A stretch of 40,151 bases of DNA from Myxococcales bacterium (GTDB taxonomy: Bacteria; Myxococcota_A; Polyangia; Haliangiales; Haliangiaceae), in assembly GCA_043737575.1 (NCBI GenBank), contig JAYTAJ010000457.1:1-40151 (forward strand), read 5' to 3'. Below are positions 7,776 to 40,151 of the stretch, piece by piece. Under the pieces are notes generated by a model. The model was not told the origin of the DNA, did no database searches, and saw only the letters and a list, made by a program, of their open reading frames with translations. Each line of letters begins with the position of its first letter. Position 1 is the stretch's first letter. The position numbers and the translations under genes are program-made.

Positions 7776-7785
7776 CGCGACCCGA

Positions 7786-8496: not shown

Positions 8497-9147
8497 ATGA
8501 CTGATCTCGTCCTCTACATCGGCAACCGCCGCTATTCGTCCTGGTCGGTGCGGCCCTACCTGGCGCTGGCCGCGACCGGCGCCGACTTCCGCGCCGAGGT
8601 CATCGCCCTCGATCAGCCCGCGACTCGCACCCAGATCGCCGCGGTCAACCCGGCCGGACGCGTGCCCGTGCTGCACCACGGCGCGCTGGTCGTCCACGAC
8701 TCCCTGGCGATCTGCGAGTACGTCGCCGAGCTGTACCCCGACGCCGGGCTGTGGCCGCGCGATCGCGCGACCCGGGCCCGGGCCCGCGCGGTCGTGAGCG
8801 AGATGCACGCCGGCTTCGCCGAGCTGCGCCGCAACATGCCGCAAGATCTCTGCGCGTCGAAGATCGGCGTCGGCCACACGCCCGAGGCGATGCTCGACGT
8901 CGTGCGGGTGATGCAGATCTGGCGCGAGCTGCGCGCCCAGGTCCCTGCCGACGCCGGGCCGTTCCTGTTCGGCAGCTTCACGATCGCCGACGCGTTCTAC
9001 GCGCCGATCGCGGGCCGGTTCCGCACCTACGGCGTCACCCTCGACGTCACTTGCCAGGCCTACGCCGACGCGATCCTCGGGTGGCCGGCGATGGCGTCGT
9101 GGATCGGCGCGGCCGGCCTCGAGGCCGAGCTGCTCGATCACAAGTAG
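8497..9147 (+). CDS. Glutathione S-transferase family protein
   Basis: Track ORF with an ATG start. The thioredoxin-like N-domain (LYIGNRRYSSWSVRPYLAL..., GRVPVLHHGALVVHDSLAICEY) plus a helical C-domain (FLFGSFTIADAFYAP) are typical of YfcF/Nu-like GSTs. Confidence 0.8.
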   Translation: MTDLVLYIGNRRYSSWSVRPYLALAATGADFRAEVIALDQPATRTQIAAVNPAGRVPVLHHGALVVHDSLAICEYVAELYPDAGLWPRDRATRARARAVVSEMHAGFAELRRNMPQDLCASKIGVGHTPEAMLDVVRVMQIWRELRAQVPADAGPFLFGSFTIADAFYAPIAGRFRTYGVTLDVTCQAYADAILGWPAMASWIGAAGLEAELLDHK

Positions 9148-9155
9148 GCCGCCAC

Positions 9156-10004
9156 CTAGCGCGACCACAGCGCCGCGTGGTCGCGGATGTAGTCGGCGAT
9201 CGTGCGTGGCGGCGCGCCGAGCAAGCGCGCCAGCGTCGGATCGATCCGGCGATGGTCGGCGCGGCGCAGCTCGGTGTGCAGCACGGTCTGGACGATCGCC
9301 TGCATCCACGGTTGATCGCGGCGTCGGCGCAGGTGCCGCAGGTACCCGACGATGCTCGCGGGGTGGTAGCGGATCGGCCGGCCGACCGCGGCGGTCAGCA
9401 GCGCGGCCACCTCCGAGAACCCGACCGCCTGGGATCCGGTCAGCGTGTACGCGGCGCGCGCGTGGGCGCCGGGATGCGCGAACGTCGCGACCGCCAGCTC
9501 CGCGAGATCGCGGACATCGACCCACGCGATCCGGCCGTCGCCCGCCGGCACGAAGATCCGATCGTCCTCGACGATGTCGCGGCGGTACGCGTCGCCGAGG
9601 TTCTGCGCGAAGAACCCGGGCCGGAGGAACGTCCAGCGCAGCGCGCTGGCGCGCAGGTACTGTTCGGTCTTGTGGTGGGGGACGAGGCGATTGCTGCCCG
9701 CGCCGGCCACCGACAGGAACGTGACGTGCCTGACGCCGGCCGAGTGCGCCGCATCGATCAGCGGATGGAGCGTCGCCGCGACATCGGAGATCGCGGGCGG
9801 GCGCAACAGGAACAGCCCATCGCAGCCGGCCACCGCGGTCGCGAACGTCGCGGGTGACGTCAGGTCGAAGCGCGGACGCGCCGGGGCATGCGCCTCGATC
9901 CCTCGGGCGGCGAGGGCGCGAATGACCTCCCGCCCGACGTTGCCCGACGCGCCCGTCACCAGGACGCGGCGACACGCTTCCGCGCTGGGCTCGGAGGGGC
10001 TCAT
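9156..10004 (-). CDS. NmrA-like / atypical SDR NAD(P)-binding protein
   Basis: C-terminal 282 aa of track ORF 9156..11072. The ATG at 10004 ([27 protein letters not shown]) overlaps the stop of the upstream Fe-S gene (ATGA at 10001-10004). It carries a Rossmann motif TGASGNVG and NmrA-like continuation. Confidence 0.75.
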
Positions 10005-11140
10005 GGCTCGTCGGCGAGCGTCGACGGCGCGGTGTACGGCGTGTCGGTGAGCGCGGCGACCGCGGTCGCGAGATCGCTGACCTCGACCGAGTCGGGCGCG
10101 TTGCGGCGCAGCATGAAGGTGCAGGTGCCGCACGCGGTGACGACGGTGCCCCCGCCCGACGCGGCGACCTCGGCGAGGCGGCGGCGCGCCATCGCGTCGG
10201 CGGTCGCGGGCGCGGTCTTCGGCAGGAGCCCGCCGCCGCCGCAGCACTCGGTGTCGGTGCCCGACCACGACAGCTCGCGCAGCTCGGCGAGGCGGCCGAG
10301 CACGCGGCGCGGCGGCTCGATGACGCCGGCCGATCGCGCGAGGTAGCAGGGGTCGTGGTAGTAGACCGACTTCTTCTTGGCGGGGACCGGCAGCTTGGCG
10401 ACGTGCTCGGCCAGGAACTCCGGCATCGACACCACCTCGACGCCGACGGTGATGCCCTCGCCCTGGTACAGCGAGCCGACCGCGTAGCGACACGCCGAGC
10501 AGCCGATCACGATCGTGCGGAAGCGGCGCATCGCCAGCGCGACCTTGCTGGCGTGCCAGCGAAACAGATCGGGCAGCCCGGCCGCGAGCAGCGGGTAGCC
10601 CGCGCACGCCAGCCCAGCGTCGACGATCGGCACCGGGCCGAGGCCGAGGCGCTCGAACACCGCCTGCGCCGCGACGATGTCGGCCGCGCCCTTGTCGAGG
10701 CTGTCGCAGCCGGGCCAGAACCCGATCGCGCCGGCCTCGGCGAAGGTCGCCGTGCTCAGCCGCTCCTTGGCCTGGGTGGCCAGCCGTTGATCGCGGGCGC
10801 GGAACCGCTCGCCGTAGCCCCCGAGCGCCGGGTGGCCGGCGCCGTGGCGCTGCGCCGCCGCGCGTCCGGCCAGCAGCACCAGGCCCGGCTCGTTCCCGTG
10901 TGCACAGTATACAGTGCACTGTCGACACCCCGTGCACGCCCACAGCGGGTCGGCCGCCTCGGCGGTCCAGGCCTCGGTGCCGCGCCGCAGCCGGTTCAGG
11001 CGATCCATCTTCGCCTGCGGGATCAGCGTCTCGCGGCCGGTCGTGGTCGACACCGGGCACGCGTGGCGGCACATCTTCGGGCAGAACGTGCAGTCGTCGA
11101 GCTGCCGCGCGACGTCCTCGGAAGCGAAGCGGTCGGACAA
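10001..11140 (-). CDS. (Fe-S)-binding CCG-domain protein, GlcF / heterodisulfide-reductase-like
   Basis: Track ORF. The start codon at 11140 is TTG; no other start precedes the first cluster motif. Two ferredoxin-type motifs are present ([23 protein letters not shown]). Two Cys-rich CCG-like halves follow (WPGCDSL..., YHDPCYLAR..., ECCGGGG). Confidence 0.8.
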
Positions 11141-11172
11141 GGCGCCGACTATACAGTGTTAGCCTCGCGGGG

Positions 11173-13143
11173 TTGTCGTCCGTCTCGCCGGTCCAGCACT
11201 TCGCGACCCCGCCCGGGACGCCGCTCTTGACGATCGGCCGGGCCGACTGCGATCTGGTGCTCGATCAGCCGCTGGTCGCGCGCCGCCACGCCGAGCTGCG
11301 GTGGCAGCGCGATCACCACGAGCTGCGCGACGCCGGCTCGGCCCACGGCACCTGGATCAACGGCGCGCGGCTGCGCGGCGCGGCGCGGCTGGCGCCCGGC
11401 GACGTCGTGCAGATCGGCACGTTCCGGCTGACCTACGACGGCGACAGCCTCGACTCGTTCGATCAGCGCGGCGCGATCCGGCTCGACGCCCGCGATCTGC
11501 GCCGCGCGATCGGCTCGAAGGTGCTGCTCGACGACACCACGCTGTCGATCGAGCCGTGCGAGTTCGTCGCGATCGTCGGCGCCAGCGGCGCCGGCAAGTC
11601 GACCTTGATGATGGCGCTGTGTGGCTTCCAGCGCGCCGACGCGGGCGCGGTCGCGATCAACGGCGACGATCTGTACGCCAGCTACGACGCGTATCGCTCG
11701 ATCATCGGCTACGTGCCGCAGGACGACATCCTGCACCGCGCGCTGACGGTCGGCCGCGCGCTGCACCACGCCGCCCGGCTGCGGCTGCCGGCCGACACCA
11801 GCGACGCCGAGCTCGACGCCCGGATCGCCGCGGTGCTCGACGAGGTCGACATGACCGCCCACGTCGATCAGCGCATCGACGCGCTGTCGGGCGGGCAGCG
11901 CAAGCGGGTCTCGATCGCGTGCGAGCTGCTCGCCGATCCGCCGCTGCTGTTCCTCGACGAGCCGACCTCCGGCCTCGACCCCGGCCTCGAGCGCAAGCTG
12001 ATGCACACGCTGCGACGCCTCGCCGACGGCGGCCGCACGATCGTGCTCATCACCCACGCCACCGCGAACATCCGGGTCTGCGATCACATCGCGTTCCTGG
12101 TCGCGGGCAAGCTGATCTACTTCGGCCCGCCGTCGCAGGCGCTCGGGTTCTTCGGCGTCGACGACTTCGCCGACATCTACGCCGCGACCACCGACGACGC
12201 CGCGCCGTCGGCGCCGGCCGACCACTGGCAGGCGCGCTACCGCGAGTCGCTGCAGCACCAGAGCTACGTCGTCGAGCGCCCGGCCCGCGCGCCCGCGCGT
12301 CCGACCCCCGAGCAGCACGCCGAGAAGGCGACGCGGGCCCGCGTCTTCGCGCGATCGCCCTCGCGCCAGCTCGCGATCTTGTGTCGCCGCTACGCCGAGC
12401 TGATGATCGCCGACCGCCGCAACCTGGCGCTGCTGCTCGCTCAGGCGCCCGTGATCGGCGTGCTGCTGGTGCTGGTGTCGGGGCCCGACGCGTTCACCGC
12501 CGACCGGCTCGAGGCCAAGAAGCTGATCTTCATGCTCGCGACGACGGGCGTGTGGTTCGGCGTGATCAACGCGGCCCGCGAGATCTGCAAGGAGGCGCCG
12601 ATCCTGCGCCGCGAGCGGCTGGCCGGGCTGCGCGACGGCCCGTACCTGGCCTCGAAGATCGTCGTGCTGTTCGCGCTGGTGCTGGTGCAGAGCGCGATCC
12701 TCCTCGGCGTGGTCGCGATCCGGATCGCGCTGCCGGATCACGGCGTGCTCGCGCCGCCCGCGATCGAGCTGTTCGTGACGATCGCGCTGGCCGGCCTGGC
12801 CGGGCTCGGCCTCGGCCTGTGCGTGTCGGCGGTGGCGTCGACGCCCGACAAGGCGACCAGCCTGATCCCGATCGTGCTGGTGCCGCAGGTGCTGTTCGGT
12901 GGGATCATGTTCAGCCTGCACGGCGCCACCGCGGCGGCGTCGTGGCTGGTGCCGACCCGCGCCGCGGTCGACGCGCTCAGCGCCACCGTCGACACCAACC
13001 GGCTCGGCGGCGTGCTGCGCTTCATCCACGAGCCACGCTACGCGCCGACGTCCGAGGTGGTGCTGGTCGCGTGGGCGACGCTGCTCGGTCAGGCGCTGCT
13101 GTTCGGCGCGGTCGCGTGGTGGACGCTGCGGCGGCGGCGCTGA
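11173..13143 (+). CDS. FHA domain - ABC ATPase - ABC-2 permease fusion (ABCG-like half transporter)
   Basis: In-frame part of track ORF 10900..13143. The upstream part overlaps the divergent Fe-S gene and was dropped. The likely start is TTG 11173 (MSSVSPVQHF...). FHA motifs: GRADCDLVLD...RRHAEL...SAHGTWINGARL. ABC motifs: Walker A GASGAGKST, signature LSGGQRKR, Walker B LLFLDEPTSGLD, H-loop ITHA. About 6 TM segments lie at the C-terminus. Confidence 0.85.
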   Translation: MSSVSPVQHFATPPGTPLLTIGRADCDLVLDQPLVARRHAELRWQRDHHELRDAGSAHGTWINGARLRGAARLAPGDVVQIGTFRLTYDGDSLDSFDQRGAIRLDARDLRRAIGSKVLLDDTTLSIEPCEFVAIVGASGAGKSTLMMALCGFQRADAGAVAINGDDLYASYDAYRSIIGYVPQDDILHRALTVGRALHHAARLRLPADTSDAELDARIAAVLDEVDMTAHVDQRIDALSGGQRKRVSIACELLADPPLLFLDEPTSGLDPGLERKLMHTLRRLADGGRTIVLITHATANIRVCDHIAFLVAGKLIYFGPPSQALGFFGVDDFADIYAATTDDAAPSAPADHWQARYRESLQHQSYVVERPARAPARPTPEQHAEKATRARVFARSPSRQLAILCRRYAELMIADRRNLALLLAQAPVIGVLLVLVSGPDAFTADRLEAKKLIFMLATTGVWFGVINAAREICKEAPILRRERLAGLRDGPYLASKIVVLFALVLVQSAILLGVVAIRIALPDHGVLAPPAIELFVTIALAGLAGLGLGLCVSAVASTPDKATSLIPIVLVPQVLFGGIMFSLHGATAAASWLVPTRAAVDALSATVDTNRLGGVLRFIHEPRYAPTSEVVLVAWATLLGQALLFGAVAWWTLRRRR

Positions 13144-13147
13144 CCGC

Positions 13148-13918
13148 TCACGTCACCGCGCGCAGCTGATCCCAGGCGCGGGCGACGAGCGCGGCGCGCG
13201 GCAGGATCGTCCACACGCACTGCGCGTCGCCCCACTCCATCTTGGCGCGGTCATCGCTGTCGAAGCCGATCAGCACCTCGTCGTCGGCGCCCTGCTCGCC
13301 GAGATCGTCGGCGGCGGCGTAGCCGAGGAGCTGGTGGATGCCGGGCTCGCCGGCGCGGCCGGGGCGGATCGACGCGCGCCACGGCAGCCACACCTGCTCC
13401 CAGTAGCGCTCGAAGGCGTCGCGCGGCAGCACCGCGAGCGCGGCCTGGGTGGGCAGGTGCAGCTCGGGCAGCACGTCGACGTCGCAGCCATCGAACGGCT
13501 CGTCGTCGAGCGGCACCCAGGCGTGACGCACCAGCTCGGCGCCGGCCGGGAAGTGCAGCACCGCGACGTCGTCGCAGGTGCGATCGGTGAACAGCGCGAG
13601 GTGGCCGTCGCTCGGCAGGAGCTGCTCGAGATCGAAGCGCGCGATCTCGGCGAGGCGCACCTGCATCACGAACAACAGCGGCCCGTCGGCGCCCTCGGGC
13701 CAGTCGACGTCGATCGGCAGATCCGGCTCGCCGCCGACCCGGGTCGCGCGCACGACGTGGCCCTTGCCGGGCCGGGTCCGCAGGCCGATCGCCGGCTTGC
13801 ACAGCGCGTCGATCGCGTCGCGCCACGGCGATAGCTCGGCGGCGGCGAGGCGAGCGTGGAGGGCGGCGCGCTGGGTGGCGTGGTCGGGGGGGGTGTCGGC
13901 GGGGGTATCGGGCTTCAT
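13148..13918 (-). CDS. DUF1963 (YwqG-like) family protein
   Basis: C-terminal 256 aa of track ORF 13148..14026. The ATG at 13918 (MKPDTPADT...) shares one nucleotide with the stop of the upstream oxidase gene (TGATG). The family-like pattern is RVGGEPDLPIDVDWP, PLLFVMQVRLAEI, GHLALF, HQLLGYA, and LIGFDSDDRAKMEWGDAQCVW. The assignment is from memory of the family consensus. Confidence 0.6.
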   Translation of the reverse strand: MKPDTPADTPPDHATQRAALHARLAAAELSPWRDAIDALCKPAIGLRTRPGKGHVVRATRVGGEPDLPIDVDWPEGADGPLLFVMQVRLAEIARFDLEQLLPSDGHLALFTDRTCDDVAVLHFPAGAELVRHAWVPLDDEPFDGCDVDVLPELHLPTQAALAVLPRDAFERYWEQVWLPWRASIRPGRAGEPGIHQLLGYAAADDLGEQGADDEVLIGFDSDDRAKMEWGDAQCVWTILPRAALVARAWDQLRAVT

Positions 13919-15170
13919 CAGCGATCCGTCAGCGCGCCGGGGTTCATGATGCCGTGCGGATCGAGCTCGGCGCGCAGCGCGATCAGGTACGGATCGAGCG
14001 CGGCCGGGCGCGCGCCGAGGAGCCACGCCCCCGCGCGGGTCGCCGCGGCCTCGGCGGCGGCCTGGGTGGTCGCCGCGACGTCACCCGCGAGCGGCGCGCC
14101 GTGATCGTCGACGAACGTCGCGAAGATCACCGCGCCGTCGCCGTCGAAGCGCGAGATGTGGGCGCGCACGCCGGGCGCGGCGGCGCGGATCGCGTGGTAC
14201 GCCGCGCGGAGCTGCCCCGGTCCCGCGGTGACCTGGAAGGTCGGGCCGGGCTCGGGGGTCGGCTCGGTGCCGAACCGCCGCCGCCACCACCGATCGGCGA
14301 GCGCGGGGGGTGCGGCCTCGCCGCCCTCGGCGAGCACCGCGCTCTCGATCAGATCGCGATCGCAGACGGCGAGATCGGTCGGCCCCGCGGTGGCGGCGAC
14401 CAGGAGCGCGTGACCGTCGGGCAACCGGGCGTCGGGGAAGTGGATCCGCGCCTCGGCGGCGTCGATGATGCGCAGCCCTGACGGCGCCGCCTCCTCGCGC
14501 AGCGCCAGGAACGCGGCGGCGATCGCGGCGTCGATCGACGGCAGCGCGAACGCGGCGAGCAGGCGGGCCTCGGGGCGGCGGTGGATGCGCAGCACCGCGC
14601 CGGTGATGAAGCCGAGCGTGCCCTCGCTGCCGCACAGCGCGCGCGCCAGATCGGGCCCGGTCGAGCGGCGCGGCGCGACCCGGGTGTGGATGGCGCGGCC
14701 GTCGGCGAGCACCGCCGACACGCCCGCCACCGCCTCCTCGAAGAAGCCATGGCGCGCCGACGACTTGCCGGGCGTGCGCACGCCGATCAGCCCGCCGATC
14801 GTGCCGCCGAGGATGCCGGGCGGGTAGTCGCCGATCGACAGGCCGCGCGGCGCCAGCATCTTCTCGAGCGCGAGGCCGGTGAGCCCGGCCTGGACGTGGC
14901 AGAGCAGCGAGGTCTCGTCGAGCAGCGACACCTGATCGAGCCGCGCGGTCGAGACCAGGAGCCGCGGCCGATCGCCGAGGCTCTTGACCCGGGCCGGCCG
15001 CGAGCCCGAGCCGAGCGGCACCACCGCGGCGCCGTGCCGGCCGGCGGCGCGCACCACGTCGGCGACCTCGGCCGGGGTCGCGGGCGTCACCTGCCACGCG
15101 GGCTGTCCGGAAACCGGACGAACCGCGTCGGCGCCGAGCAGCGTGACCAGCTCGGCGGTGAGGTCGGTGG

Positions 15171-19957: not shown

Positions 19958-20866
19958 ATGCTTCGCTGGTCCGCCCTGATCGCCGTGACCTTGGCGGTGA
20001 CGATCCCCGCCGCCCCGCTCCTCGCGCAACCGGCCGGCAAGCCGGCGGCGCCGATCGATCCGAAGAAGGTCGCGAAGGAGTACGTCGATGCGGGCGTCGC
20101 GGCGCAGACCGCGGGCGACTACGACACCGCGCTGACGTTCTTCGGCAAGGCCTACGAGCTGGTGCCGCATCCGGTGCTGCTGTTCAACATGGCGCAGGCC
20201 AATCGCCTCGCCGGTCGGCTCGACGTCGCGCTCGCGCTGTACCGCCAGTACGTCGCCGCCGAGCCGAAAGGCGCGCAGGTGAAGACCGCGCGTGAGTTCA
20301 TCACCGCGATCACCGTGCAGCTCGAGGCCGCGGCGGCGCGCGCGGCCGAGGCGGCGAAGCGCGCGCAGGACGAGGCGGCGGCGGCGGCAGCCGCGACGGC
20401 GGCACGTGAGGCCGAGGCCGCGGCGGCAGCGCAGGTGGCAGCGGACGCGGCGGCGGCGGAGCAGGCGCGAGTGGCGGCGGCGGCAGCGGCCGAGGCGGCG
20501 CGGCGGCGCGACGAGGAAGCGCGGGGGCGACGCGGTCGTGGCACGCGGATCGCGGGGCTGGTGACCGCGGGGGTCGGGGTCGCGAGCCTCGGCGTCGGCG
20601 TCTTCTACGGCCTGCGCGCGCGGACGCTGTCCGACCAGCTGTCGACGCCCGGGACGGTCTACGATCCCGACGACGACGCGGCGGGCAAGGCGGCCGAGAC
20701 CCGGATGATCATCGCGACCGCGGCGGGTGGCGCGCTGCTGATCGGCGGCGTCGTGATCCATCTGATCGGCCGCAAGCAGGACCGCGCCGCCGAGGCGCCG
20801 CGCGCCGCGCTGGTGCCGGTGATCGTGCGCGGCGGCGGCGCGATCGTCGCCGAGGGGCGCTGGTGA
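19958..20866 (+). CDS. Secreted/membrane-anchored TPR-repeat protein with Ala/Glu-rich coiled-coil
   Basis: Track ORF with an ATG start and the signal peptide MLRWSALIAVTLAVTIPAAPLLA. It has TPR-like repeats (AGDYDTALTFFGKAYELVPHPVLLFNMAQANRLAGRLDVALALYRQY). A long A/E/R low-complexity helix follows, then two hydrophobic segments. Confidence 0.75.
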   Translation: MLRWSALIAVTLAVTIPAAPLLAQPAGKPAAPIDPKKVAKEYVDAGVAAQTAGDYDTALTFFGKAYELVPHPVLLFNMAQANRLAGRLDVALALYRQYVAAEPKGAQVKTAREFITAITVQLEAAAARAAEAAKRAQDEAAAAAAATAAREAEAAAAAQVAADAAAAEQARVAAAAAAEAARRRDEEARGRRGRGTRIAGLVTAGVGVASLGVGVFYGLRARTLSDQLSTPGTVYDPDDDAAGKAAETRMIIATAAGGALLIGGVVIHLIGRKQDRAAEAPRAALVPVIVRGGGAIVAEGRW

Positions 20867-21555
20867 TGCGCGCGATCGGCTTGCTCGGGCTCGGCGCGAT
20901 CGTCGCTTGTTACGATCCGACGTACCGCGATCTGGCGTGCGGCGCGAACGGCGAGTGCCCCGAGGGCACGTCGTGCCTCGCCAACGTCTGCGTCTCCGAC
21001 CCGGTCGACGCCAGCGATCCCGACGCCAGCGATCCCGACGCCCGCATCGACGCGCCGTTCGACACCGCGCAGCCCGACGCGCGCGTCGACGCCGCGCCGC
21101 CCGACGCCCGCACCGACGCGGCGACCGATGCCGCGATCGACGCGGTGGCGCCGTGCCCGGTCAGTTCGGTGACCTCGCCGACCGATCCGACGCGGTGCTT
21201 CGTCTTGGTGTCGACGCCGCGGACCTGGGCCGACGCGCGCGCGTTCTGCATTGGCCTCGGCGGCCGTCTCGCCGACGTCCGCAACAGCACCGAGAACCAG
21301 GCCCTGATCCCGCTGGTCGGGACCAACCCGTCGACCTGGCTCGGCGGCAGCGACGCCGTGACCGAGGGCAGCTGGGTGTGGACCGACGGCGTGCCGTTCT
21401 CGTTCAACGCCTGGGGCGAGAACCAACCCAGCAACGTGCTGGGCGAGAACTGCTTGCGTTACGTCGGCCCGGGCGTGGTGGGCTACGGCCCCAGCGACTG
21501 GAGCGATCAGCCATGCGAGCCCGCGTTCGTGAGCATCTGCGTGCGGGCGCCATGA
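20863..21555 (+). CDS. Lipoprotein with C-terminal C-type lectin-like domain (CTLD)
   Basis: Track ORF. The start is GTG 20863 (GTGA overlap) or ATG 20866 (TGATG overlap). The lipobox is LLGLGAIVAC and the linker is PDA-repeat-rich. The CTLD pattern lies at nt ~21175-21546: WADARAFCIGLGGRLADV, TWLGGSD, WVWTDG, NAWGENQPSN, ENCL, WSDQPC, ICV. Confidence 0.8.
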   Translation: MMRAIGLLGLGAIVACYDPTYRDLACGANGECPEGTSCLANVCVSDPVDASDPDASDPDARIDAPFDTAQPDARVDAAPPDARTDAATDAAIDAVAPCPVSSVTSPTDPTRCFVLVSTPRTWADARAFCIGLGGRLADVRNSTENQALIPLVGTNPSTWLGGSDAVTEGSWVWTDGVPFSFNAWGENQPSNVLGENCLRYVGPGVVGYGPSDWSDQPCEPAFVSICVRAP

Positions 21556-26616: not shown

Positions 26617-26630
26617 CTCACCTCACCTCA
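26606..26630 (-). repeat. Pentanucleotide tandem repeat (TGAGG)4-CGAGG at the M23 peptidase / MMPL junction
   Basis: The plus strand reads CCTCG CCTCA CCTCA CCTCA CCTCA. On the coding strand, the first TGA (26630-26628) is the peptidase stop. The repeat supplies iterated GAGG Shine-Dalgarno cores, TGA in all three frames, and the GTG at 26616 used as the MMPL start in the ORF track. Confidence 0.85.
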
Positions 26631-27494
26631 CGAGCGGTTGCGATCGCGCGCGGGCGCGTGGCGGCGCTCGGGGCGGCGCTGCTTGCCGTGGCGGCGCGGC
26701 GGATCGTGGCGATCGACGCGCTGCTCGAGCGCGGCCGGTGACAGCAGCCACGCGGTCCAGCGCGCCGCCGCGGGATCGGTGCGCTGCAGCGCGCCGACTC
26801 GCATCGCCAGATCGGGATCGACGGCGCGACCGTCGAGGCGCACCTCGAAGTGCAGGTGCGGTCCGGTCGCGCGGCCGGTCGAGCCGACCCGACCGATGCG
26901 GTGCGCCGACGCCACCGCGGCGCCGCGCTTGACCTCGATGCGCGACAGGTGGGCGTAGCGGGTCACGACGCCGCCGCCGTGATCGACGTAGATGACGTTG
27001 CCGTAGCCGGTCTGGCGGCCGGTGAACGCGATGACGCCCGCGCCCGCGCTGTAGACCGGCGTGCCGCGATCGGCGCTGAAGTCGGTGCCCTTGTGAAACT
27101 TCGCGTTGCGATGGATCGGATCGCGGCGCCAGCCGAAGCCCGAGCTCTCGACGCCCGGGACCGGTGACGCCGCGAGGATCGTGAGATCAGGCAGCGCCGG
27201 CACCGGGATCAGCGCGAGCGTGTCGGTCATCGTGTCGGCGGCGACGTCGCGCAGGCCGATCAGCCAGCGCGTCGACCAGCCGGTCGGATCCATCAGCGCG
27301 TCGATCGTCGGCAGGACGTGGGAGAGGCGGCGCGACGCGGCGGGCAGCTCGGCCGACCACTGCCACACCTGTTCGAACAGCGACGCGATCGAGGGCGCGG
27401 CGGGCGGCGGTGGCTCATCGGCCCGGGCCTCGACCGTCGTCGCCGAGACGGCGATCCCGATCGCGAGCACGCTCAGCATGGAGCCGGACTTCAT
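26628..27494 (-). CDS. M23-family (LytM-type) metallopeptidase, secreted
   Basis: Last 288 aa of track ORF 26628..27572, starting at ATG 27494 (MKSGSMLSVLAIGIAVSATTVEARA signal peptide). M23 motifs: FHKGTDF (HxxxD), GYGNVIYVDHGGG, GRVGSTGRATGPHLHFEV (HxH). Confidence 0.85.
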   Translation of the reverse strand: MKSGSMLSVLAIGIAVSATTVEARADEPPPPAAPSIASLFEQVWQWSAELPAASRRLSHVLPTIDALMDPTGWSTRWLIGLRDVAADTMTDTLALIPVPALPDLTILAASPVPGVESSGFGWRRDPIHRNAKFHKGTDFSADRGTPVYSAGAGVIAFTGRQTGYGNVIYVDHGGGVVTRYAHLSRIEVKRGAAVASAHRIGRVGSTGRATGPHLHFEVRLDGRAVDPDLAMRVGALQRTDPAAARWTAWLLSPAALEQRVDRHDPPRRHGKQRRPERRHAPARDRNRS

Positions 27495-27605
27495 GGACCT
27501 TCGAGTCTTCGTCGGAGCGATGGGCACGATCAACCCGAGTCGGCCAAAATCGTCCGCGCGCAACCTGCGCAAATGTGGTTGCGTATCGGCGCACGCCTGC
27601 CAAGA

Positions 27606-28085
27606 ATGCCGCTGATGTCGACGACCCGCCGCGCCCTCGCGATCGTGATCGCGCTGATCGGCGCGGGTTGCTTCGCGGTCGCGGTGCAGGGCGGCCGGTG
27701 GTGGGTGATCGGCCGCGACGTCGACGTCGGCACGACGACGACGACCGCCTGCTTCAGCGATCCGTGCCGGGTCAGCAGCCTCGCGTGGACCGGCGGCGGC
27801 GACACCTGGATGCGGGCCGGCTTCGCGACGATGGTCGCCGGGCTGTGCGCCGCCGCGGTGCTGGTCGCGCTCGCGGGTGCGGTCGCGGCGAAGCGGACCG
27901 GACGCCTGGTCGCGGGGATGGTCCTGGTCGCGGTGACGACCGCCGCGGTCGCGGGCGCGACGTTCTACACCACGCGGCCCGAGCTGCCGGGCGCGTCGCT
28001 CGGGCGCGGCGCGATCCTGTTCGTCGCGGCGATCGTCGCCGCGATCGTCGCCGCCGCGGTCACGCTCACCGCGCGTCGGCCGTGA
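27606..28085 (+). CDS. Hypothetical integral membrane protein (about 4 TM)
   Basis: In-frame ATGs at 27606 and 27615 in track ORF 27318..28085 (MPLMSTTRRALAIVIALIGAGCFAVAV...). It is hydrophobic and Ala/Val-rich, with a short Cys-containing loop (TTTTACFSDPCRV). Its stop overlaps the next start (GTGA). Confidence 0.55.
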   Translation: MPLMSTTRRALAIVIALIGAGCFAVAVQGGRWWVIGRDVDVGTTTTTACFSDPCRVSSLAWTGGGDTWMRAGFATMVAGLCAAAVLVALAGAVAAKRTGRLVAGMVLVAVTTAAVAGATFYTTRPELPGASLGRGAILFVAAIVAAIVAAAVTLTARRP

Positions 28086-34789: not shown

Positions 34790-34921
34790 CGCGCGTCGCA
34801 GGACGACCACGGACCTGTCACGTGCGCGACGCGATCCGGCTCTGCGACCCCGCGATTGGCGCGCTCGGTTACAGCCAATCGACGACGGGAAGCAAGCCGC
34901 GCGCGCGCGCGTAGAAGAGGT

Positions 34922-37798
34922 GTGAATCGCGACCTCCACAGCGCGTCCTCCTCCCCGATCTCCGACGGTGGCGACAGCGCGGCGGCGCCCGGCAAGCGGA
35001 CTCGCACGCAAGGAATGGTGAGCGGTGCGGCGGCGCCGCAGGCCTGGACCGATCTGCTCGGCGTGCTCGGCGTGCCGCGAGCGCCCGCCTCACCCCCGGG
35101 CGACGATCCGTTCGCGATGCACCTGCTCGGGACCGCGGCCCGAGCGCCCGCGTCGGGGCCACCGATCCAGCGCAGCCAGGACCCCGGTCGCGAGGACACC
35201 AGCAGCGGCGCCTGTCTCGACCCCGAGGCGCTGCTGGCGGATCTGCTGCGCATCGCGCGCGAGGTCGCGGTGGTCCGCACCGCGATCGATCCGGCGGGCG
35301 CAGGCGGCGCGGGCGTCGCCGATCCCGCCGCGGCCACCACGACCCTGCGCGCGCTGACGCAGCAGACCGAGGTGCTGCGGCCGTGGGTCGACGGCTGCGG
35401 CGTCGCGATGTTCGCGGTGCCGCTCCGCGCGCAGTTCGACACCACCCAGGGCGCGCTGCTCGCGTGCTTCCAGCTGCTCGCGGTCTATCACGCCGATCAG
35501 ACGCTGCAGGCGTGGGACGGCGCGACCGACGAGCAGCAGGCAGCGCAGCGCATCCAGTGGGAGCGCGAGGCCGGCAACGCCTACGCCCCCGCGGTCACCC
35601 AGGACTGGTGCGGCAAGTTCGTCAACGCGCAGTACCGCGCGTCGGGCATGACCGGCGCGTTCCGCATGGCCTTCAACCACGTCGACAACGTCGCCGCGTT
35701 CTTCTCCTACAACGCCGTCACGCCGACCGAGCGCTCGCCGGATCTGATCCGCCCGCACGGCGCCGCGCCCGAGGCTGGGATCGATCTGCGCGGCTACCAC
35801 GAGGAGCGCGGGTCGTTGCGGAGCTGGGTCATCGGCGAGGCGATCGGCAACGACCTCCGCGCCGGCGACGTCGTCACGCTCGACTGGACCGACGACGGCA
35901 TCGCCGATCACATCAACATCGTCGCGTCGTACACGCCGCCGACCGGCACCCAGCCCGGGGTGCTGACCACGATCGACGGCAACGCCTACGGCGCGCGCAA
36001 GCCGGGCGCGGCCCGCCCCGCGTTCGACGGCGCCGCCGACAGCGTCACCACGCACGGCGACATGACGACCAACGACGTCAGCACCAGCAGCTACCAGACC
36101 ACCGCCACGCCGGGCACGCTCGATCGCAGCGGCATGATCCCGCAGGCCAACCAGGACCAGGGCAACGCCTGGCTCGGGGCCACGCTGTTCGGGCGCGGCC
36201 GGCCGTCGCTGGTCGACTTCGAGGGCGATCACACCTACCCCGACGCGCCGCAGGTCGCGGTCCCGGCCGCTGCGGCCGATCCGATCCAGCGCAGCGAGCA
36301 CGGCGCGGTGGCGACCGTCGATCCCGCGCAGGCGTTCACCGCCGCGACCGCGGGCGGCGGCTCGGCGATCCCGTACCGCGCCGAGATGGAGCAGCGGCTC
36401 GGCGCCGACTTCGGCTCGGTGCAAGCCTACGTCGGCCGCGACCTCACCGCGCTCGGCGCCCACGCCGCGGCCCGCAGCGAGCAGGTCGCGTTCACCTCGG
36501 CGACGCCGGATCGCGAGCTGGTCGCCCACGAGCTCACCCACGTCGTGCAGAGCCGCCAGGGTCGCGCCGGCAGCGCCGCGGTCAGCGATCCCGGGGACGC
36601 CTCGGAGCACGAGGCCCGCGGCGTCGCGTCGGCGTTCGCCGGGGGCGGTGCGATCGCGATCGGCTCGGCGCCGAGCGCGGCGATCCACCGCGACGACGAC
36701 GACGGCGGCACGGTGCCGACGCCGGTCTTGCCCGAGTTCAACAACCGCGGCGGCGGGCCGATCAACTTCGACACGTACAACTACATCATCGGCACCGCGA
36801 CCCGGCTGCCGGCGCCGAACAACGGCCAGCCCGGCACCGTGCGCGAGGCGTATCACTTCTACCTCCTGCGCTACCTGCAGCTCGAGCTGCCCGACCTGTG
36901 CACCGAGTTCGGCGCGATCCCCGCCGAGACCGTGGACTCGGGCCCGGCGGGTCGCGCGCTGCGGGCCACCGCCGTCGAGGGCCTGAGTGCGCTGATCACG
37001 CTGCGCATGCGCGAGCACCTCGGCGGTCCTGATCCCGCGATCGGCCGCAACCTCGCCGAGCAGATCCGCCTCGCGCTGTTCCGCGCCAACGAGCACGCCC
37101 TCGCCGACGCGCTGCAGAACGAGACCGCGGAGCGATACGAGGCCACCCGCGATGCCAACGGCGTCGCGACCGAGACCTGGTGCAACGTGTGGGCGTACGA
37201 CATGGTGACCGCGATGGGCGGCTACCTACCGCGGCAGTGGTGGACGCCCGAGGCCGAGGTGAAGTGGGCGCGCAACGAGGTGCCGGGCCCAGGCGAGGTC
37301 GTGCAGCAGCGCGCCAACGACGTCTACGACTGGATGATCCGGTGGGGCGACGAGTTCGGCTGGGGCACCGTCGACACCGCCGAGCTGGCGCAGGCCTCGG
37401 CCAACGCCGGCCGCCTCGTCATCATCCTCGCCAGCACGGGCAACGACGATCCGGGCGGCGCCGGCCCCGGCCATGTCAGCGTCGTGATGGCCGAGAGCAC
37501 CGCGCTCGGCCGCGTCCGTCCCAACGCGATCGCGCCGCTGCAGTCGCAGGCCGGCGCCGAGAACTTCTCGTCGAACGCGGCCGGCGTCGACATGGGCGTG
37601 ACCACCTCGATCGGTCATCGCGCGTGGTGGGAGGACTCGCTGTGGAGCGATCACGCCAACGCGGGCGTCGGGTTCTTCGTCTATCGCGGCGTTGGCCCTG
37701 CGCGCGGCGCCAACGCGATCCAGACTCCCGAGGCCACCGGGCTGGTGCTGCCGCGGCCGCTGCCGCCCGAGGAGACCACCGCGCCCGAGGCGTCGTAG
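34922..37798 (+). CDS. Multidomain polymorphic-toxin-like protein: N-terminal leader, CHAP/NlpC-P60-like Cys-His domain, DUF4157 (HExxH) domain, C-terminal second papain-like Cys-His domain
   Basis: Track ORF 34856..37798. The likely start is GTG 34922 (VNRDLHSASSSPISDGG...); the alternatives are TTG 34856 and ATG 35015.
- Domain 1: DWCGKFV (Cys 35609-35611), ADHINIVASY (His 35909-35911), TIDGNAYG.
- DUF4157: IPYRAEMEQRLGADFGSVQAYVG...AFTSATPDRELVAHELTHVVQSRQG, with HExxH at 36527-36541.
- C-terminal domain: ETWCNVWAYDMV (Cys 37181-37183) and GPGHVSVVMAE (His 37472-37474).
There is no signal peptide. Confidence 0.8.
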   Translation: MNRDLHSASSSPISDGGDSAAAPGKRTRTQGMVSGAAAPQAWTDLLGVLGVPRAPASPPGDDPFAMHLLGTAARAPASGPPIQRSQDPGREDTSSGACLDPEALLADLLRIAREVAVVRTAIDPAGAGGAGVADPAAATTTLRALTQQTEVLRPWVDGCGVAMFAVPLRAQFDTTQGALLACFQLLAVYHADQTLQAWDGATDEQQAAQRIQWEREAGNAYAPAVTQDWCGKFVNAQYRASGMTGAFRMAFNHVDNVAAFFSYNAVTPTERSPDLIRPHGAAPEAGIDLRGYHEERGSLRSWVIGEAIGNDLRAGDVVTLDWTDDGIADHINIVASYTPPTGTQPGVLTTIDGNAYGARKPGAARPAFDGAADSVTTHGDMTTNDVSTSSYQTTATPGTLDRSGMIPQANQDQGNAWLGATLFGRGRPSLVDFEGDHTYPDAPQVAVPAAAADPIQRSEHGAVATVDPAQAFTAATAGGGSAIPYRAEMEQRLGADFGSVQAYVGRDLTALGAHAAARSEQVAFTSATPDRELVAHELTHVVQSRQGRAGSAAVSDPGDASEHEARGVASAFAGGGAIAIGSAPSAAIHRDDDDGGTVPTPVLPEFNNRGGGPINFDTYNYIIGTATRLPAPNNGQPGTVREAYHFYLLRYLQLELPDLCTEFGAIPAETVDSGPAGRALRATAVEGLSALITLRMREHLGGPDPAIGRNLAEQIRLALFRANEHALADALQNETAERYEATRDANGVATETWCNVWAYDMVTAMGGYLPRQWWTPEAEVKWARNEVPGPGEVVQQRANDVYDWMIRWGDEFGWGTVDTAELAQASANAGRLVIILASTGNDDPGGAGPGHVSVVMAESTALGRVRPNAIAPLQSQAGAENFSSNAAGVDMGVTTSIGHRAWWEDSLWSDHANAGVGFFVYRGVGPARGANAIQTPEATGLVLPRPLPPEETTAPEAS

Positions 37799-37799: not shown

Positions 37800-38708
37800 T
37801 CAGCGCTTCTTCGTCGGCGGCAGCGGCTGCGGTGGATACGCGTGGCCGCGCGGCCAGCCGCCGGCCCACGGATAGCCGGGCGGATAGCCGTGGGGCGGAT
37901 GCATCGGCGCGTGCGCCATCGGCAGCGGCTGCACCGGCACCGGTCCGCTGGCCGGGATGCCGCCCATCTTGCGCGCCGCGTCCTCGTCGTCGAGCCGCAG
38001 CGCCAGCCGCGCGTAGCGCTTCACGATCCACCACGACGCCACCATCGCGAGGATCGGCACCGCGAGCAGCGCGTACGCGAGCGTCTCGTGGCCGTCCATC
38101 GCGAGCGGCGCGGTGAGGAACAGCCCGGCGTCGTAGGTGCCGTGCAGGAGCACCGCGAGCAAGAAGCCGCCGATGAGGCCGAGGCCGCGCTTGTCGAAGC
38201 GCTGCCGGGTCGCGCCCGCGCACGCGATCGTCGTCCACAGCGCGTGGCCCGGCACCGCCAGCACCGCGCGCAGGATCCAGGTCACGATCAAGCCTTGCAG
38301 CTCGACCTGGCCGAGCAGGTAGAACACGTTCTCGACCAGCGCGAAGCCGAGGCCAGCGCGGGCGCCGTACACCACCGCGTCCATGCGCTCGTCGTAGGCG
38401 CGGCGATCCCACGCGACCGCGTAGACGATCATCACCTTCATCGCCTCCTCGACCAGCGCGGCGACGATGAACGCGGTGAAGATCGCGCCCGCGTAGCTGG
38501 TCTCGGGCGGCCGATGCTCGCCGAGGCCGCCGAGCAGCGCGCCGTCGTAGATCAAGGTCGGGATCACCGACAGCCCGCCGAACAGCGCCACCCAGCGCCG
38601 CAGCCCGGCCGGTTCGGGACGTTTCCGATCGAGGCGATCGAAGTACCACATCGCCAGGAGTGCCGGCAGCGCGCCTGCTGCGGCGACGTAGATCGGTGGG
38701 ACGACCAC
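37800..38708 (-). CDS. PrsW-family intramembrane metalloprotease with Pro-rich C-terminal tail
   Basis: Track ORF with a GTG start at 38708. PrsW motifs: ALVEEAMK (EExxK), GLGFALVENVFY (FAxxEN), PGHALW, and LLHGTYD (HxxxD). There are about 7 TM segments. The tail is ...HPPHGYPPGYPWAGGWPRGHAYPPQPLPP. Its stop lies 1 nt from the convergent toxin-like gene stop. Confidence 0.8.
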   Translation of the reverse strand: MVVPPIYVAAAGALPALLAMWYFDRLDRKRPEPAGLRRWVALFGGLSVIPTLIYDGALLGGLGEHRPPETSYAGAIFTAFIVAALVEEAMKVMIVYAVAWDRRAYDERMDAVVYGARAGLGFALVENVFYLLGQVELQGLIVTWILRAVLAVPGHALWTTIACAGATRQRFDKRGLGLIGGFLLAVLLHGTYDAGLFLTAPLAMDGHETLAYALLAVPILAMVASWWIVKRYARLALRLDDEDAARKMGGIPASGPVPVQPLPMAHAPMHPPHGYPPGYPWAGGWPRGHAYPPQPLPPTKKR

Positions 38709-38823
38709 GGCGCAGTATACGAATATTCGGAAGGTTCCGATCGTCTGTGCGGTTCCGACGGGCTATACCCGGCGGGTCGCCGAGAAGGACTCGGCCAGCA
38801 CGGCCTTTCTGCCGGGAGGATCC

Positions 38824-39783
38824 ATGTTCAAGACCATCGCGCTCGCTGTCCTCGGTACCGCTCTCGTCGCGACTGCCACGCCAATCTCCTCAGCCCATGC
38901 GGGCGACGGCACCGACCTCCTGAAGTTCGCGCCCGAGAACAGCCAGATGGTGCTGGTCTTCGACTTCGCCGACTCGCGCGACTCGGCGCTCTTGCAGAAG
39001 GGCTTCCAGAAGCTCCTCGACGCCAGCGCCGACGCCAAGGCCAAGCTCGCGGAGCTCGGCCTCGATCCGATGAAGGACATCGACACCGTCATGTTCGCGG
39101 GCGGCGGCGCCAGCGAGCTGGAGATGGACAAGGTCAAGGACATCCTCATCGTCATCGAGGGTCGCCTGCCCAAGGACAAGCTCACCACGATCCCCAACAT
39201 CAAGACGTCGGCCTACGGCGGCGTGACGATCTACACCAACGCCGAGACCGACGCGGCGTTCATCGGCGATCGCCTGTTCTTCGCCAAGAAGGGCAAGATG
39301 AAGGCGGCGATCGACGTCGCCCAGAACAAGGGCAAGGGCAAGGGCAAGAACGTCGCGGCGTCGAAGAAGGCCAAGGCGCTGCGCGACGCGATCGCGATCA
39401 CCGACACCACCGCCGACCTGTGGGCCGCCGTGCTGGTGCCGGCCAAGAACCAGAAGTCGATGAAGGCCGATCAGGGCATGAGCGCGAAGACGGTCTCGGC
39501 CGGCTTCAACTTCACCGCGGATCTCGGCATCAAGCTGAAGATGGGCACCGACAGCGAGGCGTCGGCCGGCAAGACCGTCGGGATGATCCAGGGCCAGCTG
39601 CCGCAGGCGGTGTCGGGCCTGACCCAGTTCGGGCTGGCGAAGGCGGCGAAGTCGCTGACCGTCACCCAGGACCTGGCGTTCGTGAACATCGCGCTGACCT
39701 TGACCGAGGTGGAGCTGATGTCGCTCGTGAAGCTGGCGCAGCAGTTCGGCGGCGGCGGCGCCCCGGGCGCTGGCAACCCGTAA
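38824..39783 (+). CDS. Secreted Lys/Ala-rich protein of unknown function
   Basis: Track ORF. The ATG is preceded by a strong SD (GGGAGGAtccATG). It has the signal peptide MFKTIALAVLGTALVATATPISSAHA. GC is lower and the composition is Lys-rich, with a (AAGGGC)3 repeat encoding KGKGKGK. I recognised no family. Confidence 0.75.
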   Translation: MFKTIALAVLGTALVATATPISSAHAGDGTDLLKFAPENSQMVLVFDFADSRDSALLQKGFQKLLDASADAKAKLAELGLDPMKDIDTVMFAGGGASELEMDKVKDILIVIEGRLPKDKLTTIPNIKTSAYGGVTIYTNAETDAAFIGDRLFFAKKGKMKAAIDVAQNKGKGKGKNVAASKKAKALRDAIAITDTTADLWAAVLVPAKNQKSMKADQGMSAKTVSAGFNFTADLGIKLKMGTDSEASAGKTVGMIQGQLPQAVSGLTQFGLAKAAKSLTVTQDLAFVNIALTLTEVELMSLVKLAQQFGGGGAPGAGNP

Positions 39784-39834
39784 GAGGGCTGTCGGCCAGC
39801 CCCAACGTCTTTTTAGAGGGGCTGTCGGGCCAAG
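39783..39834 (+). repeat. Two direct copies of the AGAGGG(G)CTGTCGG(G)CCA(A)G motif immediately after the last CDS
   Basis: Copy 1 at 39783-39803 (AGAGGGCTGTCGGCCAGCCCC) contains the hairpin GGGCTG-tcggc-CAGCCC. Copy 2 lies at 39815-39834 (AGAGGGGCTGTCGGGCCAAG). Both are related to the recC-internal element at 2136-2154. Confidence 0.6.
39786..39814 (+). terminator. Weak candidate intrinsic terminator of the secreted-protein gene
   Basis: The stem GGGCTG/CAGCCC (39786-39802) starts 3 nt after the TAA stop. A T5 run lies at 39810-39814, but it is separated from the stem by 7 nt and the stem is only 6 bp. Confidence 0.3.
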
Positions 39835-39855
39835 ATCGCGCGGCGATCGGCCGCC

Positions 39856-39917
39856 GTGTCCGGCCGGTCATGTCCGGTTCTCGAACATTGTCCGAAAGCC
39901 GGACACTGGCCGGACAC
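39856..39917. repeat. Long interrupted hairpin built from TGTCCGG / CCGGACA units
   Basis: GTGTCCGGCC (39856-39865) pairs with GGCCGGACAC (39908-39917). TGTCCGG (39871-39877) pairs with CCGGACA (39899-39905). The 21-nt loop contains another GTCCGA. A further TCCGGAATCCGG lies at 39941-39952. The region is intergenic, with no credible ORF. Confidence 0.55.
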
Positions 39918-40151
39918 CCGCGCCGCCCGTGGTGCGCAGGTCCGGAATCCGGCCACCGCCCGCGTCGCGCTCGCGTCAGGCGGCGCGCCGGGCGGCCGTG
40001 CTCACGCTCATCGAGAATGGTGATCCCCCGAGATCCATTTCGAGCGCGACTCGATCGACTCGCCCGTTCGGGAGCCTTAAGGGCTCGCGAATCATGCGTC
40101 TTGTGCGCAGTGGAACGGATCCTCAGCGGATCGCGCGGGCGATCGCGGCGG

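Follow-up and report, generated by a model that had tools for sequence, protein, structure and literature searches.

A 40-kb window of Haliangiales DNA (the whole stretch analysed, 40,151 nucleotides, and the entire contig JAYTAJ010000457.1) carries on its forward strand, at 34922-37798, a gene whose 958-residue product holds a DUF4157 core between two different amidase modules with predicted papain folds. The same three-module order is found in all of about 24 full-length homologues. We put at even odds the reading that the protein is orphan-encoded cargo of a contractile injection system (CIS), bearing two peptidoglycan hydrolases and belonging to the DUF4157 class of polymorphic toxins; its toxin role and its delivery by an extracellular CIS (eCIS) are both putative.

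The reading frame is open from stop to stop at 34790-37798, and the list of open reading frames (ORFs) begins it at a TTG at 34856. A GTG start at 34922 is supported by the homologues, whose N-termini read M-N/T-R-D, and by a Shine-Dalgarno-like GAAGAGG predicted from the sequence at 34914-34920, at short spacing to the GTG. From this start the gene has 958 codons and a stop codon at 37796-37798, and its translation is the protein quoted in an earlier first-pass annotation of this DNA (all features of the gene given below lie on the forward strand). It is a real gene: its GC by codon position, 0.71/0.56/0.93, matches that of the genuine genes of this 74% GC window, which runs at 70-78% GC and holds many spurious ORFs. 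The gene is overlapped by long shadow ORFs, antisense and off-frame, that reach 668 aa (35090-37096 on the reverse strand, and other frames inside 34922-37798). They yield BLAST matches between loci, which are an artefact of high GC and conservation in the true frame and can mislead automated annotation.

A search of 5.8 billion proteins recovered 19 full-length homologues at 42-50% identity, and an exhaustive HMMER search together with a one-genome-per-species scan raised the total to about 24. Those with a taxonomic label all come from metagenome-assembled genomes (MAGs) of Kofleriaceae/Haliangiales, Kofleriaceae being a family within Haliangiales, Myxococcota. The gene had been described as an orphan, which is right for its isolated locus but not in the sense of lacking homologues. 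In an alignment of 20 homologues (42-50% identity) the invariant residues include C230, H330, D352, N354, H536, E537, H540, Q543, E562, E564, C754, H851, Q874 and Q876. The Cys/His pairs and the HExxH proposed in the first-pass annotation are thus conserved throughout, and the codons it had named for them were all exact (Cys230 35609-35611, His330 35909-35911, HELTH 36527-36541, Cys754 37181-37183, His851 37472-37474). Loss of these residues among homologues, or failure of the module assignments, was to have counted against that proposal; neither was found, as the pairs are conserved and the assignments hold.

Two predicted papain-fold modules around a DUF4157 core

The middle module, residues 485-547 (36374-36562), scores 51 bits on PF13699, for which the cut-off is 22 (E = 1.7e-13), as the earlier reading of its HExxH motif had proposed. 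The original description of this family (PMC3482391) called it the PVC-metallopeptidase and gave HExxHxxQ-E as its signature; it was later named DUF4157 and is now called eCIS_core. The gene product agrees with the signature residue for residue. Its predicted zinc-binding and catalytic segment is HELTHVVQ (36527-36550), in which four of four residues (H536, E537, H540 and Q543) are invariant. EHEAR, residues 562-566 (36605-36619), lies beyond the Pfam model and has invariant E562, E564, A565 and R566; judging from the HExxHxxQ-E signature (PMC3482391), it would provide the third-ligand Glu. Zinc-dependent (auto)proteolysis by DUF4157 has never been demonstrated experimentally in the eCIS toxin literature.

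The link between DUF4157 and eCIS toxins, which the first-pass annotation had mentioned, is borne out in print. DUF4157 is the strongest marker of such toxins (odds ratio 2614) and is specific for eCIS neighbourhoods across 13 phyla (PMC8213781); it occurs in 36% of eCIS toxins and in 0.06% of other proteins (PMC11297309). DUF4157 proteins bind the CIS spike and tube-initiator proteins in Streptomyces and occupy the tube lumen in AlgoCIS. DUF4157 is the best marker of cargo for eCIS, machines now under engineering as tools to deliver proteins; the domain may serve as an adaptor, a chaperone or a releasing protease.

Module 1 is a divergent papain-fold amidase of the CHAP/Amidase_6 type, in the CHAP/NlpC-P60 clan. 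Its predicted catalytic core spans residues 216-445 (35567-36256), the assignment being drawn from an AlphaFold2 (AF2) model (pLDDT 80.7, pTM 0.85), Foldseek, PHROG matches and relatives. The proposed nucleophile, Cys230 in DWCG (35609-35611), does not vary within the family or among distant relatives and sits at the N-terminal end of a helix (Cys 66 and helix 65-76 in the numbering of the model). The proposed general base, His330 (35909-35911), is likewise invariant, opens a beta-strand in the model and aligns with the His of the Ly7917 lysin. C230, H330 and N354 are invariant in a diverse module 1 alignment (17 sequences, 24-53% identity), in which D352 varies. The triad is therefore probably Cys-His-Asn, with Asn354 of IDGN (35981-35983) favoured over D352 as the third residue; the model places it just past the next strand after that of His330, and it aligns with the E-Q-N of Ly7917. 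A broad module 1 profile aligns both the His and the G-N motifs onto the same lysin. Towards the C-terminus, GRGRPSLVDFE (residues 424-434, 36191-36223) is modelled confidently as a strand, and G424, R425, S429, D432 and E434 are invariant across the wide module 1 family. The core is preceded by a conserved N-terminal extension, residues 96-215 (35207-35566), of which 166-198 and 203-216 are modelled as long helices and 96-164 are conserved in the alignment.

The CHAP/NlpC-P60 character of module 1, first proposed from residue order and spacing, is upheld by several kinds of match. The gene product hits the PHROG endolysin families phrog_21825 (E = 5.9e-7) and phrog_21357 (E = 5.4e-4). Among the 17 diverse relatives, six match CHAP (best E = 1.2e-6) and ten match Amidase_6, and one, P0130, exceeds the Pfam CHAP cut-off (26.8 bits vs 26). 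The top Foldseek structures are the Ly7917 endolysin, the E. coli Gsp amidase, the trypanothione synthetase amidase, the LysK CHAPK domain and Serratia Ssp1, and all of the best ones are CHAP or NlpC-P60 enzymes, though each of these structural matches is weak by itself. The gene product itself has no CHAP match in Pfam, and a sequence-profile search of the PDB with module 1 gave nothing significant. The module 1 profile retrieves 315 clusters. A scan of ten relatives found PG_binding_1 in four, SH3_3 in one and, in two, an N-terminal DUF4157 combined with a C-terminal module 1. Compared with known CHAP endolysins and amidases (Ly7917, 5d74; LysK CHAPK, 4csh; Gsp amidase, 3a30; PF05257 and PF12671), module 1 has the same Cys...His...Asn order and spacing. 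It differs from them in the invariant YHxxRGSxRxW and GRGRPSxVDFE motifs, in its long helical N-terminal extension, in being embedded in a toxin architecture rather than a lysis cassette, and in that the gene product itself scores under the thresholds of the CHAP and Amidase_6 Pfam families.

Module 3 is a second, different papain-fold domain, which its model predicts to be Tse1-like. The two modules are not duplicates of one another, as profile-profile comparison (hhalign) gave a probability of 6%, in agreement with the earlier statement that they differ. The catalytic core of module 3 covers residues 736-940 (37127-37741), as indicated by Foldseek and by the fusions of its relatives. A helical N-terminal sub-domain (residues ~640-731, 36842-37126) comes before it, with four helices at pLDDT 92-98 in AF2, and is partly conserved in stand-alone relatives; the model of the module has pLDDT 79.6 and pTM 0.80. 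The proposed nucleophile, Cys754 (37181-37183), is invariant both within the family and among distant relatives, and a helix of the model begins with it. The proposed general base, His851 in PGHVSVV (37472-37474), is invariant, opens a strand and aligns with the Tse1 GHVAVV in a weak profile match. Both C754 and H851 are also invariant in a second, diverse alignment of 17 sequences, and Q874-S-Q876 in PLQSQAG (37541-37549), invariant in both alignments, offers candidate third catalytic or oxyanion residues. The Cys...His...polar arrangement noted at first sight thus corresponds to four invariant positions, C754, H851, Q874 and Q876.

The best Foldseek match of module 3 is Tse1 (4fge_A; probability 1.00, E = 5.5e-3, 21% identity over 135 columns), with staphopains next, and a sub-threshold profile alignment to Tse1 (E ~0.7) covers the His motif only. 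No family in Pfam, NCBIfam or PHROGs matches module 3, the viral-structure library BFVD is without a match, and a sequence-profile search of the PDB gave nothing significant; a RecG hit in the PDB searches with the two modules was rejected as spurious. With Tse1/Tae1, the amidase of the Pseudomonas aeruginosa type VI secretion system (T6SS; PDB 4fge, 4f4m), module 3 shares the Cys-then-His order, the Cys at a helix start, the His at a strand start and an alignable GHV-x-VV motif, and the fusion partners of its relatives suggest a shared peptidoglycan substrate. Unlike Tse1, it is ~100 residues larger, with the extra helical sub-domain, and its gene has neither T6SS linkage nor a Tsi-type immunity gene; at 21% identity it has no significant sequence-profile link to Tse1.

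The core of module 3 is present in many unannotated proteins of ~430 aa, three of which carry PG_binding_1. The fusion partners found among its relatives are PG_binding_1, lysozyme, GH108, M15, LysM and SH3; one Henriciella protein joins it to Peptidase_M15, a phage lysozyme, GH108 and PG_binding_3, and DUF4157-led proteins with LysM also carry it. Small endolysin-like proteins with module 3 occur on eight IMG/VR contigs, two of the eight with an SH3-like wall-binding N-terminus. Two Saprospiraceae MAGs (at 737-14179 of locus L011, and at L014) encode giant polytoxins of ~4,500 aa as one polypeptide (4,481 aa at L011), in the order N-terminal DUF4157, ~2,600 residues, lysozyme, module 3, two PG_binding_1, SH3, DUF6861, TNT NADase and EndoU nuclease. 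Module 3 represents a widespread, uncatalogued Tse1-like papain-fold family that may be a new class of peptidoglycan hydrolases; its members occur in polytoxins, in CIS operons and on phage-like contigs.

Because the partners of their relatives are directed at the wall, peptidoglycan is the most likely substrate of both modules. That both amidases cut it, probably at different bonds and acting together, we consider likely. One or both might instead act on proteins, as a protease, deamidase or ubiquitin-like hydrolase with eukaryotic or bacterial cytoplasmic targets. The entry of eCIS cargo into the target cytoplasm fits such a role, as do the staphopains after Tse1 in the Foldseek list, weak matches of module 3 relatives to Peptidase_C39_2 and to the Gln_amidase papain-fold toxin, and the precedent of EAT14, which kills both E. 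coli and yeast and combines DUF4157 with a Cys-His transglutaminase-like fold (PMC11297309). The C39 and Gln_amidase matches lie far below threshold, however, the best family-level matches are to CHAP, Amidase_6, endolysins and Tse1, and the fusion partners are overwhelmingly wall-directed (PG_binding_1, PG_binding_3, LysM, SH3_3, lysozyme, GH108, M15 and SLT), so that we regard a protein target as quite improbable.

A wall-degrading enzyme could also be turned on its own cell, as a large endolysin that builds up in the cytoplasm and acts in the release of CIS particles or in programmed developmental lysis. The phage endolysin families matched by module 1, the endolysin-like relatives of module 3 on viral contigs and the missing signal peptide, as in canonical endolysins, all suit this idea; eCIS particles are moreover freed by lysis of the producer, to which eCIS toxins have been suggested to contribute (PMC8213781). 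On the other side, the gene has no holin-like or lysis-cassette neighbour and no conserved neighbour at all, its 95-residue leader with conserved islands and its DUF4157 have no role in an endolysin, and each of the two modules is found repeatedly as the toxin at the C-terminus of DUF4157 proteins, as well as in polytoxins that also bear the offensive TNT and EndoU domains. We think self-directed lysis unlikely.

Domain order, border motifs and leader

Module 1 stands N-terminal to DUF4157 in 24 of 24 full-length family members. In a local census of multi-domain proteins outside the family, by contrast, DUF4157 came first in 18 of 19, the exception being a 141-aa fragment; in ten of the 18 it is followed by module 1, in seven by module 3, and one is a polytoxin with the order DUF4157, module 1, DUF4157. 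Both amidase modules are therefore found C-terminal to DUF4157 in other phyla (10 cases for module 1 and 7 for module 3), and their relatives are mobile. The published rule for the class is that the peptidase at the N-terminus stays constant while the toxins at the C-terminus vary (Zhang et al. 2012, PMC3482391). Only the present family sets an enzyme ahead of DUF4157, an inverted polarity, and module 3 still follows the rule of a C-terminal toxin. The first-pass annotation did not know the modules as a described combination. The sandwich order and the presence of two amidases are unusual, but the pairing of each amidase with DUF4157 is known elsewhere in the canonical order.

Three natural variants show that the units can be separated. 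P0059, a complete gene, has only the leader and module 1 and ends at the second of the border motifs described below; P0021 keeps both amidases and has a Gly/Glu-rich linker in place of DUF4157; and P0054, from a Haliangiaceae MAG, has DUF4157 and module 3. Fusion is therefore the simplest origin, and most plausibly the family arose by joining a P0059-like gene for leader and module 1 to a P0054-like gene for DUF4157 and module 3. Giant DUF4157-led polytoxins (the 4,481-aa Saprospiraceae protein of L011, and P0146) likewise place several effector modules, module 3 or module 1 among them, on one chain with DUF4157. Theirs have DUF4157 N-terminal of the array or of each unit, whereas the gene product has lost, or never had, a DUF4157 before module 1. 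In P0113 (919 aa, from a low-GC organism) a DUF4157 core, AHELTHVVQQTGTIQNKP, is followed by a degenerate partial repeat, NELTHLVQKTGGVQTKP, which lacks the first His and sits between a papain-like-looking middle region and a C-terminal module 1; the repeat may be what is left of another DUF4157 unit.

A pentapeptide, [ILV]-[QH]-R-x-[ED], is found at exactly three sites per family member and nowhere else in the ~950 residues, at a frequency of 2.75 per protein against 0.39 expected from shuffling. The three copies are conserved islands in otherwise variable linkers, one at each border between units. Border motif 1, IQRSQ (residues 82-86, 35165-35179), lies between leader and module 1, with R84 invariant and Q83 and Q85 conserved to at least 90%. 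Border motif 2, IQRSE (residues 455-459, 36284-36298), lies between module 1 and DUF4157, 81 residues before HExxH, with R457 and E459 conserved to at least 90%. Border motif 3, IHRDD (residues 588-592, 36683-36697), lies between DUF4157 and module 3, 52 residues after HExxH, with R590 invariant and Q591 conserved to at least 90%. We also looked for the strict motif around 37 DUF4157 cores from outside the family and from other phyla. Three unrelated proteins have it at +56 to +59 of HExxH (0.15 expected; +52 in the gene product) and two, L033 and L036, have it at -81/-83 (-81 in the gene product); anywhere from -250 to -40 there are seven matches, including the -81/-83 cases, against 0.78 expected. 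The border motif is thus a real cross-phyla feature, present in a minority of DUF4157 proteins, and the papers that we read do not mention it.

DUF4157 might be a two-sided releasing peptidase, cutting the border motifs and the end of the leader after delivery and so freeing two independent wall hydrolases, a scheme that we consider doubtful. It fits the symmetric placement of the motifs and the 2012 prediction (PMC3482391) that DUF4157 is a releasing peptidase. Against it, there is no report of a DUF4157 protein being processed; the toxicity and loading of Cgo1 depend on neither DUF4157 nor its HExxH; and the end of P0059 at a border motif suits a recombination boundary at least as well as cleavage. 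The motifs could also be recombination handles for the swapping of modules. If the scheme were true, they would be the first candidate recognition sites for DUF4157, a domain of unknown function since 2012. With its core between two enzymes and the same short motif on both sides, the family is a natural test case for DUF4157 and bears directly on that prediction.

The N-terminal leader, residues 1-95 (34922-35206), is polar, aromatic-poor and disorder-prone (disorder-promoting residues 0.66, aromatics 0.02, mean hydropathy -0.51) and has no Sec, Tat or lipobox signal. Nor did we find a transmembrane segment or signal peptide in the gene product (maximum Kyte-Doolittle hydropathy over 19 residues, 1.23), the lack of a signal peptide having been noted in the first-pass annotation. 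The leader is variable save for four conserved islands, M-x-R-D, PGK[RQ]T, W-x-x-L-x-x-x-L-G-V and IQRQE. In the second of these, P-G-K-R-T (residues 23-27, 34988-35002), G24 and K25 are conserved to at least 90%, and a local motif search found a PGK[RS]TL island ~30 residues from the N-terminus of three effectors from outside the family and of differing architecture (P0056, P0130 and P0156, the last two each on a 3-kb contig). A profile of the 100-residue leader, too short for such a search, found nothing at E <= 0.01 among 5.8 billion proteins. Known eCIS cargo carries system-specific loading sequences (AlgoCIS literature); the leader is like them in being polar and disorder-prone without a signal peptide, and the shared island recalls them. 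Leader and DUF4157 together agree with the hydrophilic, disorder-prone and aromatic-poor N-terminus used as a criterion for eCIS toxins, as judged by composition rather than by a published classifier score.

Candidate routes of delivery

Taken together, these features resemble those of the PVC-metallopeptidase or DUF4157 toxins (the validated AlgoCIS cargo Cgo1 and Cgo2, and the eCIS-associated toxins, EATs). In common are the PF13699 core and its signature, a disordered leader without a Sec signal, a variable C-terminal toxin-like domain (here module 3), the lack of an immunity gene and occurrence in Haliangium-type bacteria. The gene product differs from them in having a folded enzyme N-terminal to DUF4157, two hydrolases instead of one and a short conserved motif at each of its three borders, and its gene lies away from CIS genes at eight loci. 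There is also precedent for peptidoglycan hydrolases among eCIS toxins, in EAT10 of Pseudoalteromonas luteoviolacea and a pesticin-domain eCIS toxin, with ~10^4-fold higher toxicity in the periplasm; EAT10 differs in that it has no DUF4157, lies in its eCIS operon, has another fold and bears a single catalytic domain.

In the mechanism that we propose, the protein would be made in the cytoplasm without entering the Sec pathway, the leader and DUF4157 would recruit it to a CIS encoded elsewhere, and firing would bring a pair of distinct peptidoglycan amidases into a target bacterium or onto its surface. Loading through leader and DUF4157 onto or into such a CIS, and firing into other bacteria, is the weakest step, for which we would give an even chance at best. 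No immunity gene would be needed, since an enzyme that lacks a signal peptide would stay out of the periplasm and away from the wall of its producer; immunity genes are typically absent in this toxin class (PMC8213781, PMC3482391).

One relative of module 3 is linked to an injection system by the position of its gene. P0048, which joins PG_binding_1 to module 3, lies within a complete CIS operon (locus L054, positions 1-16387 of contig CAXWIZ010000005.1, GCA_964267705.1) in the order sheath, gp19 tubes, CIS_tube, spike, PAAR, gp25, Baseplate_J, P0048 and a large baseplate protein of 1,338 aa. The operon is of eCIS type (Phage_sheath_1, gp19 tube, CIS_tube) and not a T6SS, and is followed by FHA/Tail_P2_I and FHA-kinase genes. 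P0048 is placed in the baseplate block instead of at the cargo end (3'), from which it would seem that members of this amidase family have a structural role in some systems, like that of a tail lysin. A previously overlooked CIS, with a truncated spike that HMMs miss, has been reported in Haliangiales MAGs in a 2024 preprint (10.1101/2024.12.19.629468), and Haliangium was listed among the hosts of PVC-metallopeptidase toxins in 2012, so a CIS elsewhere in the genome is plausible. The family would then be a lead to effectors with genes remote from those of their machine in the predatory Haliangiales, whose injection system has come to light recently.

Several observations weigh against cargo of a CIS. 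We compared eight loci, namely the window, six other loci of the family and the P0054-type locus with DUF4157 and module 3. As the first-pass annotation had stated, the 40-kb window has no CIS gene, by library scans or by BLAST with the CIS proteins of the L054 operon, and there is none within ±10 kb at the seven related loci. The gene is thus not encoded within ~10 genes of an eCIS operon, a criterion for eCIS toxins in the operational definition of Geller 2021 and Danov 2024, and 88% of the known ones lie within ten genes of theirs (PMC11297309). DUF4157 is dispensable for loading in AlgoCIS. The structural match of module 3 to Tse1 is weak (E = 5.5e-3, target-normalised TM-score 0.41, rmsd 8 Å), and its weak sequence link vanishes with a broader profile. 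The Foldseek matches of module 1 are weak as well (best E = 0.056, probability 0.82, TM-score 0.19-0.33), and the gene product's own Amidase_6 score, 14.3-16.4 bits, is under the cut-off of 23.2. Finally, eCIS deliver cargo to the target cytoplasm and not obviously to the periplasm, the site of peptidoglycan.

Periplasmic delivery, which suits a peptidoglycan hydrolase, is what a T6SS would offer, and many Myxococcota carry one; the protein might thus be T6SS cargo that is delivered into the periplasm of neighbours, like Tse1. The structure that module 3 matches best is that of Tse1, the Foldseek list of module 1 includes a T6SS amidase from Serratia (4bi4), and DUF4157-like domains occur in some T6SS effectors. 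Yet the gene product has no PAAR, VgrG, MIX/FIX or Rhs module, no T6SS, VgrG or adaptor gene is present in the window or at the seven related loci, the window has no Rhs gene (T6SS and Rhs genes in the window as already noted from the sequence), and the sole machine-linked relative, P0048, is in an eCIS-type operon. T6SS amidase effectors (Tae/Tai families) are normally paired with an immunity gene. Here there is no adjacent periplasmic immunity gene and no conserved neighbour, and we find a T6SS route improbable.

The gene is always apart from any injection locus, and a predation enzyme that needs no CIS could leave the cell by another myxobacterial route, such as outer-membrane vesicles, the Tad-like Kil apparatus or release by lysis, with DUF4157 as an intramolecular maturation protease. 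CIS are rare in Myxococcota, which use several other export routes (10.1101/2024.12.19.629468), and DUF4157 proteins exist in bacteria without known eCIS, for example adjoining ripC in mycobacteria. Against such export stand the high specificity of DUF4157 for eCIS neighbourhoods across 13 phyla (PMC8213781), the module 3 relative embedded in a CIS operon, the CIS now found in Haliangiales (10.1101/2024.12.19.629468) and the absence of a lipobox or signal peptide for vesicle or periplasmic routing. We hold it to be as improbable as the T6SS route, and continue to favour orphan-encoded CIS cargo.

Neighbouring genes and other features of the window

No neighbour is conserved across the eight loci, and hence there is no immunity or adaptor gene; the only recurrent flanking matches are Ser/Thr kinase paralogues and the antisense shadow ORFs of the gene itself. 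FHA and Ser/Thr-kinase genes recur near the family loci and in the L054 CIS operon, which probably reflects their abundance in Myxococcota. A prophage location was ruled out, as the window has no phage genes. The gene upstream encodes a PF01425 amidase, and a sequence scan around the gene found no sigma-70 promoter or intrinsic terminator.

Downstream there is no co-directional immunity-like gene, as had been observed; the next gene is a convergent one for a PrsW-family intramembrane protease (37800-38675, reverse strand), whose ORF ends one base past the stop of our gene. PrsW is among the toxin-releasing peptidases listed by Zhang et al. (2012, PMC3482391). We rejected it as a dedicated partner, since the adjacency is not conserved at the homologues' loci and is probably coincidental.

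At one family locus in a Kofleriaceae MAG (L006), the homologue stands head-to-head with a second, divergent DUF4157 protein (6776-9811, reverse strand; 1,011 aa, eCIS_core E = 8.3e-9). The two make up a small group of DUF4157 effectors, and there are no CIS genes close to it.

Elsewhere in the window, an M23 peptidase gene (26628-27959, reverse strand; E = 6.9e-34) lies 7 kb upstream; its product is a further peptidoglycan hydrolase, and it adjoins an MMPL transporter and has no apparent relation to the gene. A protein with a C-type lectin domain (20863-21555, forward strand; PF00059, E = 1.3e-13) is encoded directly downstream of a TPR protein (19958-20866, forward strand); C-type lectin domains are uncommon in bacteria. 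The gene at 11128-13143 (forward strand) encodes an ABC transporter that begins with an FHA domain (FHA + ABC_tran + ABC2_membrane). Over the last 2 kb of the window (38000-40151) GC falls to 0.68-0.69. A 319-aa ORF there (38824-39783) is without a Pfam match and is unusually poor in GC at the first and second codon positions (0.59/0.45); this may be recently acquired DNA.

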